From sequence record MZ560701: a stretch of DNA of 64,000 nt; one strand, given 5' to 3'. Under the pieces are notes generated by a model, which saw nothing but the letters and a program-made list of their open reading frames with translations, ran no database searches and was not told the origin of the DNA. The DNA is from Escherichia phage vB_EcoM_TU01. The translations under genes were made by a program, and so were the position numbers. This document shows positions 4,577-61,897 of the stretch, piece by piece. Within the stretch, counting starts at the first letter, position 1. Each line of letters begins with the position of its first letter.

Positions 4577-4777
4577 ATGGCTAAGCTTTTTAAAGATGTT
4601 GAAATTGGTGAAAAATTTGTTCTGAATAATGGTCAGCAGCTTATTCGTGTAGCTTCTATCGCCGGACAAACTCATAACTGTATCGCCCCAACGTGTTGGA
4701 CTCGATTCTTTATTGAAGATGACACTGAATGTTTAACTGTTGAAGAGCTTTTTGAACGTTCTGATATAGCCGAATAA
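4577..4777 (+). CDS. hypothetical protein
   Basis: 66-aa ORF with GAGGAA RBS, downstream of an early promoter. Confidence 0.6.
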   Translation: MAKLFKDVEIGEKFVLNNGQQLIRVASIAGQTHNCIAPTCWTRFFIEDDTECLTVEELFERSDIAE

Positions 4778-4779
4778 AA

Positions 4780-4809
4780 TTGTACAAACTCTTGAGAGCA
4801 GAGTATAAT
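4780..4809 (+). promoter_or_regulatory. early promoter upstream of ndd
   Basis: TTGTAC, 18 bp, TATAAT; -10 enclosed by GAGAGCA/TGCTCTC. Confidence 0.6.
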
Positions 4810-4853
4810 GCTCTCATGGATTACAAAAACATTAATCAATTGAGGAAATTAGC

Positions 4854-5643: not shown

Positions 5644-6969
5644 ATGCAATTGAATTCTCGTAATCTAAAAAGTATTATTGATAACGAAGCCTTAGCATAT
5701 GCAATGTACACCGTTGAAAACCGTGCAATCCCAAACATGATTGATGGATTTAAGCCGGTTCAACGTTTTGTGGTTCATCGTGCATTAGATTTGGCTCGTG
5801 GTAATAAAGAAAAATTTCATAAACTTGCGTCAATTGCAGGCGGTGTTGCAGATTTAGGTTATCACCATGGTGAATCTTCTGCACAAGATGCAGGTGCATT
5901 GATGGCTAACACATGGAACAACAACTATCCACTGTTAGATGGCCAAGGCAACTTTGGTTCTNGAACAGTCCAAAAAGCTGCAGCATCTCGTTATATTTTT
6001 GCTCGTGTAAGTAAAAATTTCTATAACGTATATAAAGATACTGAATATGCTCCAGCTCATGAAGATAAAGAACACATTCCACCAAAATTCTATCTTCCTA
6101 TTATTCCGACAGTTCTTTTGAATGGCGTCTCTGGTATTGCAACCGGTTACGCAACAAATATTCTGCCTCATAGTTTTAAATCAGTCAAAAAGGCTGTATT
6201 ACAAGCTCTTCAAGGTAAAAATGTCACTAAGCCAAAAGTTGAATTCCCGGAATTCCGTGGTGAAGTNCATGAAGTTGATGGGCGTTATGAGATTCACGGA
6301 ACATATAAGTTCACATCTCGCACTCAAATGCAGATAACTGAAATCCCATATAAATTCGACCGTGAAACGTATGTGAGTAAGGTTCTTGACCCATTGGAAG
6401 ACAAAGGTCTAATCTCATGGGAAGATGATTGCGGTGAACACGGCTTTGGGTTTAAGGTGAAGTTCCGTAAAGAGTACTCGCTTCCTGATGATGAAGAGCT
6501 ACGTCATGAAAAAATCATGAAAGATTTTAGTCTCATCGAACGTCGTTCACAAAACATCACAGTGATTAATGAAAAGGGTAAATTAGCGGTCTATGATAAC
6601 GTAGTGGACTTAATCAAAGATTTTGTTGAAGTCCGTAAGACTTACGTTCAGAAACGTATTGACAACAAAATCCTTGAATCTGAAAAAGCATTTAAACTTG
6701 CTTTTGCTAAGGCACACTTCATCAAAAAAGTTATNACAGGTGAAATTGTGATTCAGGGCAAGACTCGTAAAGCTTTGACTGAAGAGCTAGCACAAATCGA
6801 AATGTATAAAGAACATGTCGATAAACTGGTAGGTCTTAACATCTTCCATATCACTTCCGACGAAGCACGTAAACTAGCAGAAGAAGCTAAAGCTAAGAAA
6901 GAAGAAAATGAGTATTGGAAGTCTACTGATGTTGTGACAGAGTACACTAAAGACTTGGAGGCACTTTGA
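5644..6969 (+). CDS. 52: DNA topoisomerase II medium subunit
   Basis: 441 aa; GyrA/ParC-like N-terminal region (NMIDGFKPVQRFVVH, GNFGS) matching T4 gp52 (442 aa). Confidence 0.95.
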   Translation: MQLNSRNLKSIIDNEALAYAMYTVENRAIPNMIDGFKPVQRFVVHRALDLARGNKEKFHKLASIAGGVADLGYHHGESSAQDAGALMANTWNNNYPLLDGQGNFGSXTVQKAAASRYIFARVSKNFYNVYKDTEYAPAHEDKEHIPPKFYLPIIPTVLLNGVSGIATGYATNILPHSFKSVKKAVLQALQGKNVTKPKVEFPEFRGEXHEVDGRYEIHGTYKFTSRTQMQITEIPYKFDRETYVSKVLDPLEDKGLISWEDDCGEHGFGFKVKFRKEYSLPDDEELRHEKIMKDFSLIERRSQNITVINEKGKLAVYDNVVDLIKDFVEVRKTYVQKRIDNKILESEKAFKLAFAKAHFIKKVXTGEIVIQGKTRKALTEELAQIEMYKEHVDKLVGLNIFHITSDEARKLAEEAKAKKEENEYWKSTDVVTEYTKDLEAL

Positions 6970-7045
6970 GTGCCCTGGCCTTAGGATTTCTCGGTGCAAT
7001 AGCTGCACTAGTGATTTGGCTGTATTGGTTGGACAAACATGATTA

Positions 7046-7066
7046 GGGAGCCGAAGCTCCCTTTGT
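7046..7066 (+). terminator. intrinsic terminator after gene 52
   Basis: GGGAGC-CGAA-GCTCCC hairpin then T-rich tract. Confidence 0.7.
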
Positions 7067-7087
7067 GCATTTTTTNCTCACAAAACA

Positions 7088-7116
7088 GTTTACATGTGCT
7101 TCAAACATGATAGTAT
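7088..7116 (+). promoter_or_regulatory. early/middle promoter (copy A of motA promoter cassette)
   Basis: GTTTAC plus MotA-box-like TGCTTCA then TAGTAT; part of a ~70-bp direct repeat. Confidence 0.6.
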
Positions 7117-7160
7117 AGACCTATCAAAACAAAACAACCAAATTGGAGAAATAAAATGTC
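7088..7160 (+). repeat. direct repeat copy A (promoter, leader, RBS, ATGTCTAAA)
   Basis: about 70 bp, over 90% identical to 7410..7480. Confidence 0.85.
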
Positions 7161-7371
7161 TAAANTGAAATTAACCCAAAACACAACTACTCGTTTCGGT
7201 AAAGTTAAACCTGGTATGAATGCTCCACGTAAAGCACTTGTTGAAGAATTAAATTTCTTAGAAGTTGAAATCAATTCTTTAGTGGTTCGCGGTTCAAATG
7301 GACATCATTTAGAAAAGCTTCGTTCTAAAAAGGCAAAACTTATTAGCCTTATTAAAGAAATGAGTTTGTAA
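7156..7371 (+). CDS. hypothetical basic protein
   Basis: 71-aa ORF preceded by a near-exact copy of the motA promoter, leader, RBS and ATGTCTAAA start. Confidence 0.6.
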   Translation: MSKXKLTQNTTTRFGKVKPGMNAPRKALVEELNFLEVEINSLVVRGSNGHHLEKLRSKKAKLISLIKEMSL

Positions 7372-7409
7372 ATTTTACCAGGGCTTTTGGAAAAAGAGCC
7401 CAAAATAAA

Positions 7410-7439
7410 GTTTACTTTTGCTTCAAACATGATAGTATA
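7410..7439 (+). promoter_or_regulatory. early/middle promoter of motA (copy B)
   Basis: GTTTAC plus TTGCTTCA then TAGTAT, 36 nt upstream of motA ATG. Confidence 0.65.
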
Positions 7440-7480
7440 GACCTATCAAAACAAATACNAATTTGGAGAAATAAAATGTC
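7410..7480 (+). repeat. direct repeat copy B (motA promoter, leader, start)
   Basis: about 70 bp, over 90% identical to 7088..7160. Confidence 0.85.
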
Positions 7481-8108
7481 TAAAGTTACTTACATCATCA
7501 AAGCTTCCGAAAACGCTCTGAATGAAAAAACTGCTGCAATAATGGTTTATATCATTAAGAACAACTTCACCACTGCTGCCAATGTCCGTGAAGCTCTGGA
7601 AGCGGAATACAATGCATCGGTTGTTAACTCTAACATTGGTGTATTGATTAAGAAAGGTTTAGTCGAAAAATCTGGTGACGGACTTATAGCAACAGGTGAA
7701 GCAATGGATATTATCCAAAAAGCTGCAGACCTATTTGCTCAAGAAAATGCTCCAGAACTTCTTCAGAAACGTAACACCAGAAAAGCACGTGGAGTTACTC
7801 CTGAAATGCATGAACTAGCAAACTTTGTTTTTGAAAATATTAAAGATAAAGTTGAAGTTAAAGAAATTGGTGAAAACCGTAGTAACTTGGAAGTTCGATT
7901 TGCAAAACGAGTTCTAGGTATTCGTCAGATCGAAATTCGTCGAGATGGCGCTCTTAGAATCTTTGCATACAACATGACAGAAACTGAATCAAAGCTGTTT
8001 ACTTCTCTTGAAAATGATGTTAAGATTAAGATCGGTGGTAAATATACCTACATTGACTTCCCTAATGTTTCCAAAGAAATCATTACCCTTGTAACTAACG
8101 TACTGTGA
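7476..8108 (+). CDS. motA: middle-transcription activator MotA
   Basis: 210 aa; MSKVTYIIKAS..., NIGVLIKKGLVEKSGDGLI, QENAPELL match T4 MotA (211 aa). Confidence 0.95.
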   Translation: MSKVTYIIKASENALNEKTAAIMVYIIKNNFTTAANVREALEAEYNASVVNSNIGVLIKKGLVEKSGDGLIATGEAMDIIQKAADLFAQENAPELLQKRNTRKARGVTPEMHELANFVFENIKDKVEVKEIGENRSNLEVRFAKRVLGIRQIEIRRDGALRIFAYNMTETESKLFTSLENDVKIKIGGKYTYIDFPNVSKEIITLVTNVL

Positions 8109-15457: not shown

Positions 15458-15464
15458 CAAAAAT

Positions 15465-15482
15465 GGGAGACCGAAGTCTCCC
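15465..15482 (-). terminator. intrinsic terminator after gene 35
   Basis: GGGAGAC-UUCG-GUCUCCC on the - strand followed by a U-run; just upstream of the gene 36 late promoter. Confidence 0.75.
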
Positions 15483-15487
15483 TAAAT

Positions 15488-16623: not shown

Positions 16624-19600
16624 TTATTCAATCCACTCGAATTTAACAGATTTATTCACAGGGTCTGGAATAATGCGGACATTACCAATCCTTAAGAAAT
16701 CCCTTATTGTCAAGTTTCCGATTGTTGCATTATCAGAAGGTAAAGCGCCAATATCAGAAGGTTGAGGAGGGTTTCCACCATCAAATACCTGAACAAAACT
16801 TGACCAAGAATTTTTAGTTTTCTGCCATGTACGTGTCCAACGAGTGGTACGTGCTTCTGGAGTTGTTGGATAAGTAATCCAATCTTGGTAAAGTGAATCA
16901 AGTGTATTACCAAACTGAGTCAATGTACCAGGAGATTTAACTTCTTCGCCACGTTCTAAGTATGGAAGTCCAGTCACTTCATTAGTTTTTTCAACCATTT
17001 TAAAATAACCAGGNAANTGGTTATAAGTGGCTGAATCATTAATGTCAATTGACCAGAATCCTACTGTATCGGATGTTGGTGCNCGAGTNTATAAATCAGA
17101 TGTTTTAGTGCCCTGAGAACGAATTCTCGAGTTAACAGTCAAACCACCTGAATTTATAGTAGCACCTTTGGCGATGATTAAGCTTTCACCAATCGTTACT
17201 TGACCAGATGCGTTATTAATAGCTAAAGGACGTAATCCATTAAATCCGCCAGTCTGATCACCTGATGCAGTAAGCATAAAATAGGTGTTAGCAGCATCAT
17301 TACGAATAAAGAATCCATAATCGCCATTTATTGCTCTGAAAGCATTTGCAGACTTGCTGATGAATTCACCATTAGCAGTAACTGAACGTCCGAATGTTGC
17401 ANNGCCATTAACATTCATCAAACCGGAAGCATTAATGTTTATTGGCATTACAGTACCATTAATGCTAAACGCTATATTCCCATCTTTATTACGTTGAGAA
17501 TAAAAGTGATTAGATGTTTCATCACCAACTTCAAATACAGTAGAACGTGTTGTATCNGAACCGCCANCANANTGNTTNCCCCANACNCNGATAGTCATCG
17601 TCTGTGCTGGGTTAGTTCCAGTTTGAGGTCCTTTCTCAAAAATCAGACGAGTTGCNGTTCCAGTATTAGAAATAGTTAATGTACTATTTGCCGAAACTGA
17701 ACCACCAAACGTAGCAGTACTAGATGATACAAGAGGGGCTCTCAGATTCGTTTGTTGGGTTAAGGTTAGTGAACCATTAACCGTCTGTGCAATGTCCCTA
17801 CGAATGAACTGAGACGAATCTAGGCCATCTAATAAATTTGTGTCAGCAGCTTTTGCTTTTAATGGCAANTAATTTGCNANTACACGGTTTAATTCATATG
17901 GTGATACNGCATAGCTATTTTTCTCNTATGATTCTAAAGGTTGTGTAGAACCGACTGTATCATTACCAACGAATGTAATTGAACCGGATGAAGTTTTAAC
18001 AAAACCTCNNATCGCCGTAGTAGCAGCCCATGTTGGTTCGTTCTGGACAATCCATTTTAAATTCTTAGGAGATACAGCAGTATTAGCAGAAGTTCCTGTT
18101 ACAGTTTCAGCCTGAGTAGCAACCTTAATTACACCTTCAGACGTTTCAGTGGACTTAGTCCCTAAAAGCTTTTTAGGAGTAATAAGAACATCATCTAAAG
18201 TTCCTGCATTAGATTCTGCCTGGGTCGCTACGCGAAGTGTACCACGTTGTGTTTCATTTGCTTTAGAAATATCAAGAGTATAATGGTTCCACAAGGTTCC
18301 TTCTTCAATAAGTCCGGAATCAGAATTAACACTGGTACGGTCAGAAGAATCAAAATGAGTTTTAATTTTCAGTGGAGTCGAGATACGAGTATCATCAGTT
18401 CCAGTATCAAATTCAACTTGCGTAGCAATTTCGGCTATGCCGGATAATCCTTCCGTCGCTCTCCTATCATTTAACGTCTTAGGCGTTACTGCACGTGTAT
18501 AATCAGTCCCAGCATTAGTTTCTGCTTGCGTAGCAATTTCAATTAAACCAATACGTCCATCAGTAGAAGTTTTCTTATGTAGTGTTTCAGGAGTTACTAC
18601 AGCGTGAGAATAACCTGCTTGTGATTGACCAGCAATTACTTCACTATCAACAGCTAAAATTACTGCACCTTGTTGAGCATAAGTTGCTTTATATTGGTCA
18701 AGGGCTTTAGGAGAAATAGTTAACNTGGNTGTGTCTTTATTATAAACGTTAGTGCCTGCGGCCCCACGAGTTTCAGCAGGAGTAGCAGAAGTAGTTGATA
18801 CATATTTAACTATACCAGACAGCGTTTCNGANCCCTGACGTGCCTGCAATTTCTTAGGTGTAATAATCGTTGTGTCATCAAGACCAGCATCGGTTTCAGT
18901 CTGAGTAGCAATTTCAGCAAGACCTCGACGAGTTTCAGTTGCTGTACGCTCATTTAGTTTTTTAGGCGTAACAATAGTATCGTCCACAAATGATGCTGTG
19001 GAATTCTGGTTAACTTGCGCTGTTGTAGCAATTTTGGCGATACCACGTCGAGATTCAGTTGCTGTACGATTTGCCAACGTTTCAGGAGTAATAGCCACTT
19101 CTTTAGCTGGAGTATTCTCTAAATCAACATTTGCTTGTGCCTGAGTTGCAAGAGCAATAACACCTACACGAGCTCNNGTNGNATCGGATCCAGCATCAAC
19201 ACGTTCTACCGTAGGGACATTCTGTTGCACAACCCAATAACGNGTNNCAGCAACGGTGTCTTCGATATACGCTAATTCTAATACAGGAACATATGAAGTA
19301 GTGCCATTGAATTCTAGTTCAGTAACAGAGACCCATTGAGCATCAGGTGGATATTCAGAACGTTTAGGGAACTGAAGCAATGCAACAGAAGAAGCAATTG
19401 TATCACCTTCGGCAGCTTTAATTTTTACTGTTTGGCCTTTACGCATGTAGTTCATTGAAATTTTAACAGTGTCACCACTCAAAATTCCGGAAGGCAGCGT
19501 AAGATTAATAGTTCCGGCTGTAGCGTTATTTGTGCCAAAAATAAGAACTTCTTCATTTGGACGAATATTTGAATCCGCACGGATAATACGAAGACGCGAT

Positions 19601-32944: not shown

Positions 32945-33159
32945 CTAAAGAACAGCATGAATACATTAAAGGGCTTATCTATGAATCTGAAATGGCGGCC
33001 ATGATTTACGGGCGTCAGATTCAACGATTAGAATCTTTGCCTCCGACTAATGACCGCTTGTTAGTTCAGTCTCGTGCTAATCTGAAAAACGAATATCAGA
33101 ATAAGTGGGCAGTAGCTACTAAAGCTCTTCATGAGTATATTGAATCTTTAGTAAAATAG
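32935..33159 (+). CDS. hypothetical protein
   Basis: 74-aa ORF. Confidence 0.65.
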   Translation: MPMTKEQHEYIKGLIYESEMAAMIYGRQIQRLESLPPTNDRLLVQSRANLKNEYQNKWAVATKALHEYIESLVK

Positions 33160-33189
33160 TTTACAAACTCTCGGGAGCAGAGTATAATG
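33159..33189 (+). promoter_or_regulatory. T4-type early promoter
   Basis: GTTTAC, 19 bp, TATAAT; -10 enclosed by GGGAGCA/TGCTCC; near-identical to the ndd promoter. Confidence 0.65.
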
Positions 33190-33216
33190 CTCCTATGGAT
33201 AATTGAGGAAATCTAA

Positions 33217-38836: not shown

Positions 38837-38865
38837 GTTTACTCTCCTGTAGGATGTGTTACTAT
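38837..38865 (+). promoter_or_regulatory. T4-type early promoter
   Basis: GTTTAC, 17 bp, TGtTACTAT. Confidence 0.65.
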
Positions 38866-38906
38866 AGACTTGTACCACCTAATCAATAAAACAACCGGAG
38901 AACAAA

Positions 38907-39275
38907 ATGAAAATCAATCTGAACTCATACATCAAATGTAAAGACCACGATGGTTATAAAGCTATCGAAATTAAAGAATTCCAGTGGATGTTATACAAAG
39001 AGCAATTTGAGTTCGTAGGTTGTATGACCCCTGAAGGTCCTTCTGATGATTTCTCTTGGAAAATTGTGTTAGCAAACTTTTTCACAGGTGACACATACGA
39101 ATTAAAAACTATTATTACCGGTAAAATTCGTTCAGAAACATATGTTGACGAAGAAACTGGTTACTCTGAAGATGTTACATGGTATCAAAATGGACGCATT
39201 ACAGCAGATAACCTGATAGAAAAAATGAAAGCCAAAGGTGTTTTAAATTTAGACAATTGGATTAAAGTTGCATAA
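38907..39275 (+). CDS. hypothetical protein
   Basis: 122-aa ORF downstream of an early promoter. Confidence 0.65.
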   Translation: MKINLNSYIKCKDHDGYKAIEIKEFQWMLYKEQFEFVGCMTPEGPSDDFSWKIVLANFFTGDTYELKTIITGKIRSETYVDEETGYSEDVTWYQNGRITADNLIEKMKAKGVLNLDNWIKVA

Positions 39276-39279
39276 AACA

Positions 39280-39308
39280 GTTTACTTTGGTACAGGTTAT
39301 GTTATTAT
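39280..39308 (+). promoter_or_regulatory. T4-type early promoter
   Basis: GTTTAC, 17 bp, TGtTATTAT; inverted repeat GGTACAGGT/ACCTGTACC. Confidence 0.65.
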
Positions 39309-39349
39309 AGACCTGTACCAACAAACAACTTAAACATCTGGAGAATAAA

Positions 39350-39715
39350 ATGAACTACACCAACTTCGAACGTAAATATGTTTCTAACGGTATTGCTGGT
39401 TCTATTGATACGATTTGCTTATGGAAGCATAAAAACGGTNCAGTATGTGAAATTGAACAGTGCATGACTCCTAATTACGTTTATATGCGATTTGAAAATG
39501 GTATCACGGTTTCAATCACGATGGAAGGTTCAAATTTTAAAATTGCATTAGATGATGATTTCCGTCAGCGTGATTTAGGTACTCATCCTTGTTGGAATGG
39601 TGTTAATCGTAAACTTCTGGTTAAAACTTGGATTCGTCATATCCTGAGTAACCGAGCTAAACCTGAACATCTCGAAGCAATCTTTGATGTAGTTCTTAAC
39701 GAATTTGATATCTAA
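39350..39715 (+). CDS. hypothetical protein
   Basis: 121-aa ORF downstream of an early promoter. Confidence 0.65.
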   Translation: MNYTNFERKYVSNGIAGSIDTICLWKHKNGXVCEIEQCMTPNYVYMRFENGITVSITMEGSNFKIALDDDFRQRDLGTHPCWNGVNRKLLVKTWIRHILSNRAKPEHLEAIFDVVLNEFDI

Positions 39716-61845: not shown

Positions 61846-61855
61846 AACCAAAAAT

Positions 61856-61873
61856 GGGAGACCGAAGTCTCCC
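61856..61873 (-). terminator. intrinsic terminator after gene 23
   Basis: GGGAGAC-UUCG-GUCUCCC on the - strand followed by a U-run. Confidence 0.8.
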
Positions 61874-61897
61874 AAAATAAGATTTAATCAATTAAGA

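Follow-up and report, generated by a model that had tools for sequence, protein, structure and literature searches.

Why should motA, which encodes the activator of middle transcription in T4-type phages, have its promoter, leader and first codons repeated some 320 nucleotides (nt) upstream, in front of a second, small gene? The question is raised by Escherichia phage vB_EcoM_TU01, of which we analysed a 64,000-nt stretch (sequence record MZ560701; hereafter the window); all coordinates below are positions in this 64-kb window, on its plus strand. Here two repeated copies, A and B, lie between gene 52 and motA, copy A ahead of a gene for a 71-amino-acid (aa) protein and copy B ahead of motA. 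We propose, at a probability of roughly 80%, that the locus is a pair of cassettes of the PeSL (promoter-early stem-loop) type, a composite of stem-loop and early promoter, occupying a variable 52-motA slot of Mosigvirus. The accessory gene and motA would thereby stand under like signals, the two copies would be homogenised, and the cargo between them could be deleted or replaced.

The repeat was recovered both by a repeat finder and by MAFFT, as a pair of 86 nt (A) and 84 nt (B):

7079 to 7164, plus strand: repeat copy A, with A-rich upstream sequence, -35 GTTTAC (7088-7093), a 17-nt spacer containing TGCTTCA (7097-7103), TG (7108-7109), -10 TAGTAT (7111-7116), leader, GGAG (7145-7148) and ATG TCT AAA (7156-7164).
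7401 to 7484, plus strand: repeat copy B, with -35 GTTTAC (7410-7415), a spacer containing TGCTTCA (7419-7425), TG, -10 TAGTAT (7433-7438), a leader 2 nt shorter than that of A, GGAG (7465-7468) and ATG TCT AAA (7476-7484).

The copies start 322 nt apart, a spacing that drops to 320 nt past the leader indel. In a gapped alignment they agree at 76 of 85 informative columns (89%), with that 2-nt indel as the single gap; the corresponding figure for the record of phage JS09 is 75 of 86 columns (87%). Two tracts are perfect: 37 nt running from the promoter spacer through the -10 element to about +10 (7097-7133 = 7419-7455), and 22 nt, TTGGAGAAATAAAATGTCTAAA, covering the ribosome-binding site and start (7143-7164 = 7463-7484). 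A first-pass annotation of this DNA had described a segment of ~70 base pairs (bp) repeated 322 bp apart, with copy A preceding a basic 71-aa open reading frame (ORF; 7156..7371), copy B preceding motA and both products beginning MSK. The spacing, the two genes (ORF list; Pfam) and their starts are as it gave them, and the repeat proves slightly longer, at ~85 nt.

T4-type early promoters have a long consensus, and GTTTAC, TAnTATAGACCT and GGAGAAnnAAAATG are common to other early promoters of the window; on these grounds A and B could be independent promoters made alike by convergence on the early-promoter and ribosome-binding-site consensus. The controls render this highly improbable. Five GTTTAC-N17-TAnnAT sites in the window show mutual identities of 55-69% over 55 nt, against 89% over ~85 nt, with unbroken runs of 37 and 22 nt, for A and B. 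The best other match to the block in the window, at 39271, reaches 67%. The non-consensus spacer TGCTTCAAACATGA is the same in both copies and found nowhere else in the window, and a 28-nt core has only two sites in the 64 kb with up to three mismatches allowed, where shuffled sequences gave an expectation of zero. The alignment therefore confirms what the first-pass annotation had asserted, an extended near-identical block in two copies that goes beyond generic promoter consensus.

Between 6400 and 8500 the window matches Escherichia phage vB_EcoM_JS09 (Mosigvirus, Tevenvirinae) at 98.4% identity and equal coordinates, and over 7.1 kb it differs from the deposited JS09 sequence (NC_024124.2) by 127 substitutions, mostly transitions, and 18 Ns, with no indels; the window is therefore a JS09-like genome. 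The 688 Ns in the window and a divergence of 1.8% from deposited JS09 without one indel over 7.1 kb suggest a draft or reference-guided sequence, in which the repeat might have been produced by the assembly or consensus step, for instance where reads piled up at the promoter and were collapsed or duplicated. The chance of this is negligible, because the equal arrangement is found in ~75 independently deposited Mosigvirus records, and likewise in 17 Dhakavirus records and in metagenomic contigs, the work of many laboratories and sequencing platforms. Annotators should nevertheless be prepared for short reads to be mis-assembled, or variants cross-mapped, over the 37 identical nt of the core. 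At 7113 and 7435, the homologous -10 position in the two copies, the window has G where deposited JS09 has T, and G-for-T differences are uncommon in this comparison (7 in 7.1 kb). These two bases could reflect conversion or import of a G/G allele, as in phage NHEP11, or cross-mapping in a consensus assembly.

The anatomy of each copy follows the PeSL layout described for T4 and PST by Comeau et al. (2014, PMC4122927), a stem-loop just 5' of an AT-rich region, a TTTACW-N17-TAYWAT promoter, a ribosome-binding site and a start codon. Here the stem-loops are as follows:

7045 to 7062, plus strand: hairpin 1, AGGGAGC-CGAA-GCTCCCT (RNA fold), the stem-loop of cassette A, terminator-like for gene 52.
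7381 to 7401, plus strand: hairpin 2, GGGCTTTT-GGAAA-AAGAGCCC (RNA fold), the stem-loop of cassette B.

Both hairpins end 9-26 nt ahead of a -35 element. Each copy then reads GTTTAC(A/T)-N17-TAGTAT, with TG at -15/-14 and A-rich sequence upstream, and has GGAG 7 nt ahead of the ATG; from their sequence, both are probably immediate-early sigma-70 promoters. The leaders of ~30 nt are predicted to be unstructured, folding no better than shuffles (z 0.2 and 0.6). Hairpin 1 (-12.0 kcal/mol, z -2.45) is followed by a T-rich tract at 7063-7075 (TTTGTGCATTTTTT) and carries a terminator annotation in PhAPEC2 and NBG1, whereas a simple terminator scan called it on the minus strand only. Hairpin 2 (-12.2 kcal/mol, z -3.0) is followed by AAAATAAAG, without a U-tract. 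It is kept at the 3' edge of the cargo in JS98, JS10 and Sf21 despite their different cargo, and between Mosigvirus and Dhakavirus one of its pairs changes in compensation from G-C to A-T and another from U.G to C-G. No Rfam family matched at E <= 1 across the region.

Hairpin 1 varies among genomes in its own right: its loop and closing pair flip at 7046-7061, between GGGAGC-CGAA-GCTCCC and GGGAGC-TTCG-GCTCCC. In phage pEK20 a Dhakavirus-type hairpin, AAGGAACCTTCGGGTTCCTT, stands in its place, along with a 34-aa small ORF, which suggests that the left side of the slot was exchanged separately.

The enclosed ORF has the features of a conserved gene:

7156 to 7371, plus strand: 71-aa accessory gene of phrog_6200, a family of unknown function (ORF list, JS09 annotation, PHROG, tblastn).

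Its product is basic, with a calculated isoelectric point of 10.35 and 14 lysines and arginines against 6 aspartates and glutamates, and it matches phrog_6200 at 4e-40. By tblastn the ORF turned up in 93 phage records, each time as a single copy and only at the 52-motA locus; 76 of these records are of Mosigvirus type and 17, at 72-78% identity, of Dhakavirus type. A search of 5.8 billion proteins returned eight clusters, all at least 72% identical and all unnamed; IMG/VR gave two loci, and relatives were accordingly sampled as individual GenBank records. Between JS09 and JS98 the ratio of nonsynonymous to synonymous substitution (dN/dS) is 0.21 at a synonymous divergence (dS) of 1.14, as compared with 0.25 and 0.95 for motA, and the ORF is exactly 71 codons long in both Mosigvirus and Dhakavirus, with 46 invariant residues. 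These comparisons show purifying selection on the gene and, as its dS is close to that of motA, an age similar to that of the split between the two genera. In an AlphaFold2 model of a family protein, which has a predicted local distance difference test score of 77, residues 1-22 are a basic, disordered tail ahead of a hairpin of two helices. The fold is a generic helical hairpin, for which Foldseek against PDB and BFVD returned nothing significant beyond the orthologue in Bp7, and Pfam gave one sub-threshold match (RACo_C_ter, E 0.015). The ORF was also considered as a partial duplicate of motA and this was rejected, as the similarity ends at MSK.

Decaying alleles of the gene exist. SRR8893626 (positions 1142-1165) has CAA changed to TAA at codon 8 (Q8 stop) together with a 2-nt deletion at +1 of promoter A, and a HALE18 metagenome contig (positions 1345-1356) has TTA changed to TGA at codon 51 (L51 stop). 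These two nonsense variants are consistent with dispensability of the gene in some lineages. They would also suit a quite different proposal, namely that the ORF is no gene at all and that the region is a long structured motA leader served by alternative distal and proximal promoters. Transcripts from promoter A probably run on into motA past hairpin 2, and about half of the relatives manage without the ORF, as this proposal would have it. We nonetheless judge it very unlikely, given a dN/dS of 0.21 at such a high dS, the constant length with its invariant residues in two genera, a GGAG of the ORF's own at the proper spacing, the PHROG family match, the confident helical-hairpin model and the lack of any Rfam match in the region.

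A cassette that can be lost should be missing cleanly from some relatives, and this is what the deposited genomes contain. A 901-bp probe matched ~156 records at the Mosigvirus level, of which 75 span it in full and ~80 match in two pieces over 580-585 bp, that is 901 minus 321: the ORF-less records are shorter by exactly one repeat unit. RB69 likewise has a 52-motA spacer of 185 bp, as against 506 bp in the window, and its single promoter resembles A in the upstream flank and spacer and B in the leader. Both states occur inside one species of the International Committee on Taxonomy of Viruses (ICTV), as with NBG1, which has the ORF, and G2469, moskry and mar005P1, which lack it, or with JS09 (present) and pEK20 (absent). 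The suggestion in the first-pass annotation that the repeats are substrates for loss or amplification of the intervening gene is thus borne out as regards loss, both in RB69 and in the Mosigvirus records that lack one unit and retain a single chimeric promoter; for amplification we found no evidence. Presence and absence, which it had proposed should be compared among relatives, are indeed polymorphic in about equal shares (~75 with, ~80 without).

The points of joining differ between genomes. Two markers distinguish the copies, the start of the spacer (AYRT in A, TTTT in B) and the leader (CAAAACAAAACAACCAAA in A, CAAAACAAATACTAAT in B), and they divide single-copy genomes into those with A-spacer and B-leader (RB69, pEK20), those with A-spacer and A-leader (phiE142, L004, G2469, p000v) and those with B-spacer and A-leader (F2, moskry, mar005P1). 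An A-leader/motA junction was matched at 99% or better in 56 records and a B-type junction in 59. The motA leader of Marfavirus reads CAAAACAAATGAATGAATTGGAG and the A leader resembles that of the JS98 ORF, so that the outgroups indicate the B leader as the ancestral motA leader. An A leader before motA therefore calls for either a crossover in the 22-nt block of ribosome-binding site and start, or prior conversion of the copy-B leader to A type, and this converted state is seen in NHEP11 and EP02SG, which have an A-type leader in both copies. When ORF presence was placed on neighbour-joining trees of the two flanks it took 9 Fitch steps on one and 6 on the other, where random placement averages 7, and hence carries no phylogenetic signal; the nearest tree neighbours of ORF-less genomes often carry the ORF. 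On a point of labelling, F2 (NC_054913.1) is filed as Tequatrovirus (Tequatrovirus efftwo), and its 52-motA region is 96% identical to that of Mosigvirus JS09, which is either a mosaic genome or a question of taxonomy.

Replacement of the cargo can be followed across genera. In JS10 (Dhakavirus) a 75-aa ORF of phrog_10955, with no BLASTP alignment to the 71-aa protein, lies between the corresponding repeated promoters and 3' hairpin. This ORF is 97-99% identical in more than 130 Tequatrovirus records, and in Sf21, the one Tequatrovirus checked for position, it lies between motA.1 and motA. Identity between JS10 and Sf21 is ~99% over a stretch that opens just past the -10/+1 of copy A, takes in the ORF, the hairpin and the promoter and leader of copy B, and ends at ATGTCTAAA of motA; beyond it the two show ordinary inter-genus divergence, and the left side of Sf21 keeps a T4-type motA promoter. 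These bounds of identity define the mobile unit as leader, cargo, hairpin, and a replacement promoter and leader for motA. Both of its ends lie in sequence that the window has twice, one in the promoter and the other in the block of ribosome-binding site and start.

Within genomes the two copies co-vary. Three alleles segregate at the third base of the -10 element, yet A and B agree there in every one of the 11 two-copy genomes that we examined: seven are T/T, the window and NHEP11 are G/G, and JS98 and JS10 are C/C. The GCTTC or GCTTT state of the spacer is likewise common to both copies within a genome. This co-variation indicates gene conversion, and A/B identity stands at 87-94% even though the enclosed ORF has diverged to a dS of 1.14. 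The reach of conversion can be judged from JS98, where the repeat reaches no further than about +10 and the ORF, behind a leader of its own, starts MNKMK; all Mosigvirus ORFs start MSKMK behind a motA-type ribosome-binding site, and motA itself starts MSK in T4, RB69 and JS98. Given the JS98 arrangement, the leader, ribosome-binding site and MSK shared in Mosigvirus are a secondary conversion from motA, and the simplest reading of these sequences is that a motA conversion tract overwrote the ribosome-binding site and first three codons of the ORF in the Mosigvirus lineage.

The first-pass annotation had read the repeat as a tandem duplication with promoter capture. As an interpretation this finds support, while the origin is better described, on the evidence of JS98, as insertion or exchange of a promoter-bounded, PeSL-type cassette followed by gene conversion. 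A one-off local tandem duplication of the motA 5' region, with an ORF arising or captured in between and the ORF-less phages retaining the ancestral state, would fit the single motA promoter of T4 and RB69, the resemblance of the copy A 5' flank and copy B leader to single-copy outgroups, and the confinement of the ORF to this locus. It appears improbable to us for four reasons. The ORF is as diverged as motA, yet the copies are near-identical and have lineage-specific changes in common; the ORF-type (A) leader stands before motA in ORF-less genomes, which is inexplicable for a state in which nothing was ever inserted; presence is interleaved on the flank trees and inside species; and different cargo lies within matching boundaries in JS10 and Sf21.

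Several observations weigh against a PeSL-type cassette pair that is exchanged and homogenised. The promoter status of both copies is read from sequence, and the G of TAGTAT departs from the published TAYWAT, whereas JS09 and most relatives have TATTAT. Hairpin 2 may not terminate, as it lacks a U-tract, and motA could then receive read-through from promoter A. The identity of the copies may be kept in part by selection on the promoter, the motA promoter and leader being highly conserved in Marfavirus too, and the G/G state of the window could be due to read cross-mapping if the window is a reference-guided consensus, NHEP11 being independently G/G. The flank trees support repeated exchange but do not prove it, as they are shallow and weakly resolved (0.5-3% divergence), and the mixed junctions could result from one deletion combined with ordinary homologous exchange between co-infecting phages. 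Deletion would perhaps proceed via a circle of ~320 bp, of which the genomic products, the deletion junctions, are what is seen here.

With these points in mind, we suggest the following model for the cassette pair. Unit A would express the 71-aa accessory gene as an immediate-early product and unit B would express motA, so that the accessory gene is transcribed and translated by the signals of the master regulator of the middle mode and is probably shut off alike. The phage's own homologous recombination enzymes would keep the units near-identical through gene conversion or unequal exchange. Recombination between the copies in one genome, or in sister or co-infecting genomes, would lead to deletion, conversion or replacement of the cargo. 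It is plausible that the homology between A and B lets cargo be deleted, re-inserted or replaced without motA ever being left promoterless. The homology required for recombination in T4 is less than 50 bp (Singer et al. 1982, cited in PMC2839356).

The model has close precedents. In RB49 and phi1, exchange between adjacent PeSLs removes ORFs and produces mini-circles, which were detected by inverse PCR; the crossovers mapped between the -10 element and either the ribosome-binding site or the ATG (Arbiol et al. 2010, PMC2839356). The present locus resembles these systems in its composite unit of stem-loop, AT-rich region, sigma-70-like N17 early promoter, ribosome-binding site and ATG. The flanked small ORFs of unknown function vary among close relatives, being inserted, deleted or replaced while their neighbours stay expressed, and the inferred crossovers fall in the intervals that separate -35, -10, ribosome-binding site and ATG. 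It differs in that A and B are 87-94% alike including the leader and first three codons, which is above the consensus similarity of the PeSL family, and in that hairpin 2 is no canonical terminator and lacks the GGGG/CCCC stem noted for RB49. Moreover, concerted evolution is explicit here, and the downstream partner is the essential regulator motA and not another ORFan. The searchable text of the two PeSL papers (PMC2839356, PMC4122927) mentions neither this locus nor motA, Mosigvirus or RB69, and a limited literature search found no published description of the 52-motA polymorphism.

T4 motA shares with the window a hairpin terminator, CACAAAAC-GGTTTAC, a -10 element, a leader, GGAG and ATG TCT AAA GTA ACT, but has one promoter copy and no cargo other than motA.1. 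At the T-even internal-protein (IP) locus, repeated promoter and stem-loop sequences bound interchangeable small genes (Repoila et al. 1994, cited in PMC2839356); compared by that citation, the IP locus differs from the 52-motA slot in position and in cargo class. Arbiol et al. (2010, PMC2839356) drew an analogy with integron cassette arrays, and the present locus recalls it in having a fixed slot beside a conserved gene, small interchangeable cargo and a resident promoter. Unlike integrons it has no integrase and no attC or attI sites, exchange appears to use general homologous recombination over identical tracts of 20-40 nt, and the incoming module brings a replacement promoter for the downstream gene.

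The spacer of both copies contains a Mot-box-like heptamer, TGCTTCA, 3 nt past the -35 element. The Mot box is (a/t)(a/t)(a/t)TGCTT(t/c)A, centred near -30 and ~12 bp upstream of a TAnnnT -10 element. In both copies TGCTTCA lies 7 nt from the -10, with no TAnnnT at 11-13 nt; a MotA-dependent middle promoter was thus rejected, and because of this wrong spacing copies A and B are not standard middle promoters. GTTTAC-NNN-TGCTT occurs nowhere in the window apart from the two copies, and TGCTTYA as such is enriched in the window (55 occurrences, 24.6 expected). The Dhakavirus copies have TGCTTTA, and GTTTAC-N2-3-TGCTT is found in slot promoters of Moonvirus (CF1, Merlin) and Marfavirus. Autoregulation by MotA did not come up in a literature search.

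A link to later regulation may lie in the leaders. The endoribonuclease RegB, with S1, targets the 11-nt single-stranded GGAGRAYARAA (Durand et al. 2006), and T4 motA RNA is a good RegB substrate, cleaved inside GGAG (PMC1702504). Both copies carry GGAGAAAUAAA, which matches this consensus at 9 of 11 positions, the mismatches being at positions 7 and 8; with such a match RegB cleavage is only inferred here. By analogy with T4, the cargo may share the post-transcriptional shut-off of motA via RegB.

Paired early promoters recur at slots with other contents, with lower identity (65-78%). T4 and RB69 have no cargo, while CF1 has two ORFs, Merlin three, and PhiKpNIH-6 one of 215 aa. TGCTT(C/T)A is conserved in the slot-promoter spacers of Mosigvirus, Dhakavirus, Moonvirus and Marfavirus, and stands where it would conflict with sigma-70. 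A bolder and rather doubtful extension of our proposal would make 52-motA a dedicated, integron-like acquisition slot across Tevenvirinae, where modules integrate on their left through the resident motA promoter and on their right through the motA ribosome-binding site with ATGTCTAAA, and where the spacer heptamer permits feedback by MotA on its own and the cargo promoters. If so, any cargo would automatically be immediate-early and co-regulated with the MotA master switch.

The surroundings of the slot are those of JS09, in the order gene 52, the 71-aa hypothetical gene (7156-7371), motA, and arn.4 onward:

5644 to 6969, plus strand: gene 52, topoisomerase II medium subunit, the conserved left neighbour of the slot (ORF list; JS09 NC_024124.2 annotation).
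6966 to 7046, plus strand: an unannotated 26-aa hydrophobic ORF, MSALALGFLGAIAALVIWLYWLDKHD, with a TTG start overlapping the gene 52 TGA (read from sequence).
7476 to 8108, plus strand: motA, activator of middle transcription, the conserved right neighbour behind copy B (profile matches and annotation).

MotA is matched by Pfam MotA_activ (4e-40) and MotCF (2e-8) and by phrog_1345 (6e-90). The 26-aa ORF occupies the position of T4 motA.1 (49 aa, phrog_3487) and of the 34-aa ORFs of JS98 and pEK20 (phrog_16377), all of which start at a matching xTGA overlap. It has no profile match in PHROGs or Pfam, and its assignment is therefore tentative.

Four other repeats were noted in the window. An early-promoter/leader pair at 38837-38920 and 39280-39365, 443 bp apart and 69-72% identical (GTTTAC-N17-TAYTATAGAC..GGAGAAnAAAATGAA), is possibly a second PeSL-type pair flanking a small ORF. 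A 46-nt block, TACAAACTCT..GAGCAGAGTATAATGCTC, promoter-like and with an embedded palindrome, recurs at 4776-4821 and 33155-33200 with 85% identity, and a 30-nt hairpin, CAAAAATGGGAGACCGAAGTCTCCC, recurs at 15458-15487 and 61849-61878, 46 kb apart, with 97% identity. Divergent families of 48- and 44-nt direct repeats (61-84% identity, spacings of ~108-375 nt) occupy 18079-19068 and are probably internal to a tail-fibre-type coding region.

The mechanism we invoke is already known from the PeSL systems, and the 52-motA locus is a well-documented further example of it, with population-level detail and transfer of a module between genera at the motA promoter. Public data capture here an almost even division of presence and absence, at least three junction classes, conversion between copies, decaying alleles and a near-identical module in two genera. 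Therapeutic Mosigvirus stocks may accordingly be expected to be heterogeneous at this site. With motA as the downstream partner the cargo is tied to the genes expressed first, a class to which factors for host takeover or against host defences typically belong, and the 71-aa protein, like the 75-aa replacement found elsewhere, is a reasonable candidate for functional screens. The locus thus offers a natural example of how T4-type phages acquire, discard and exchange small early genes, with regulatory sequences of their own serving as the portable homology.

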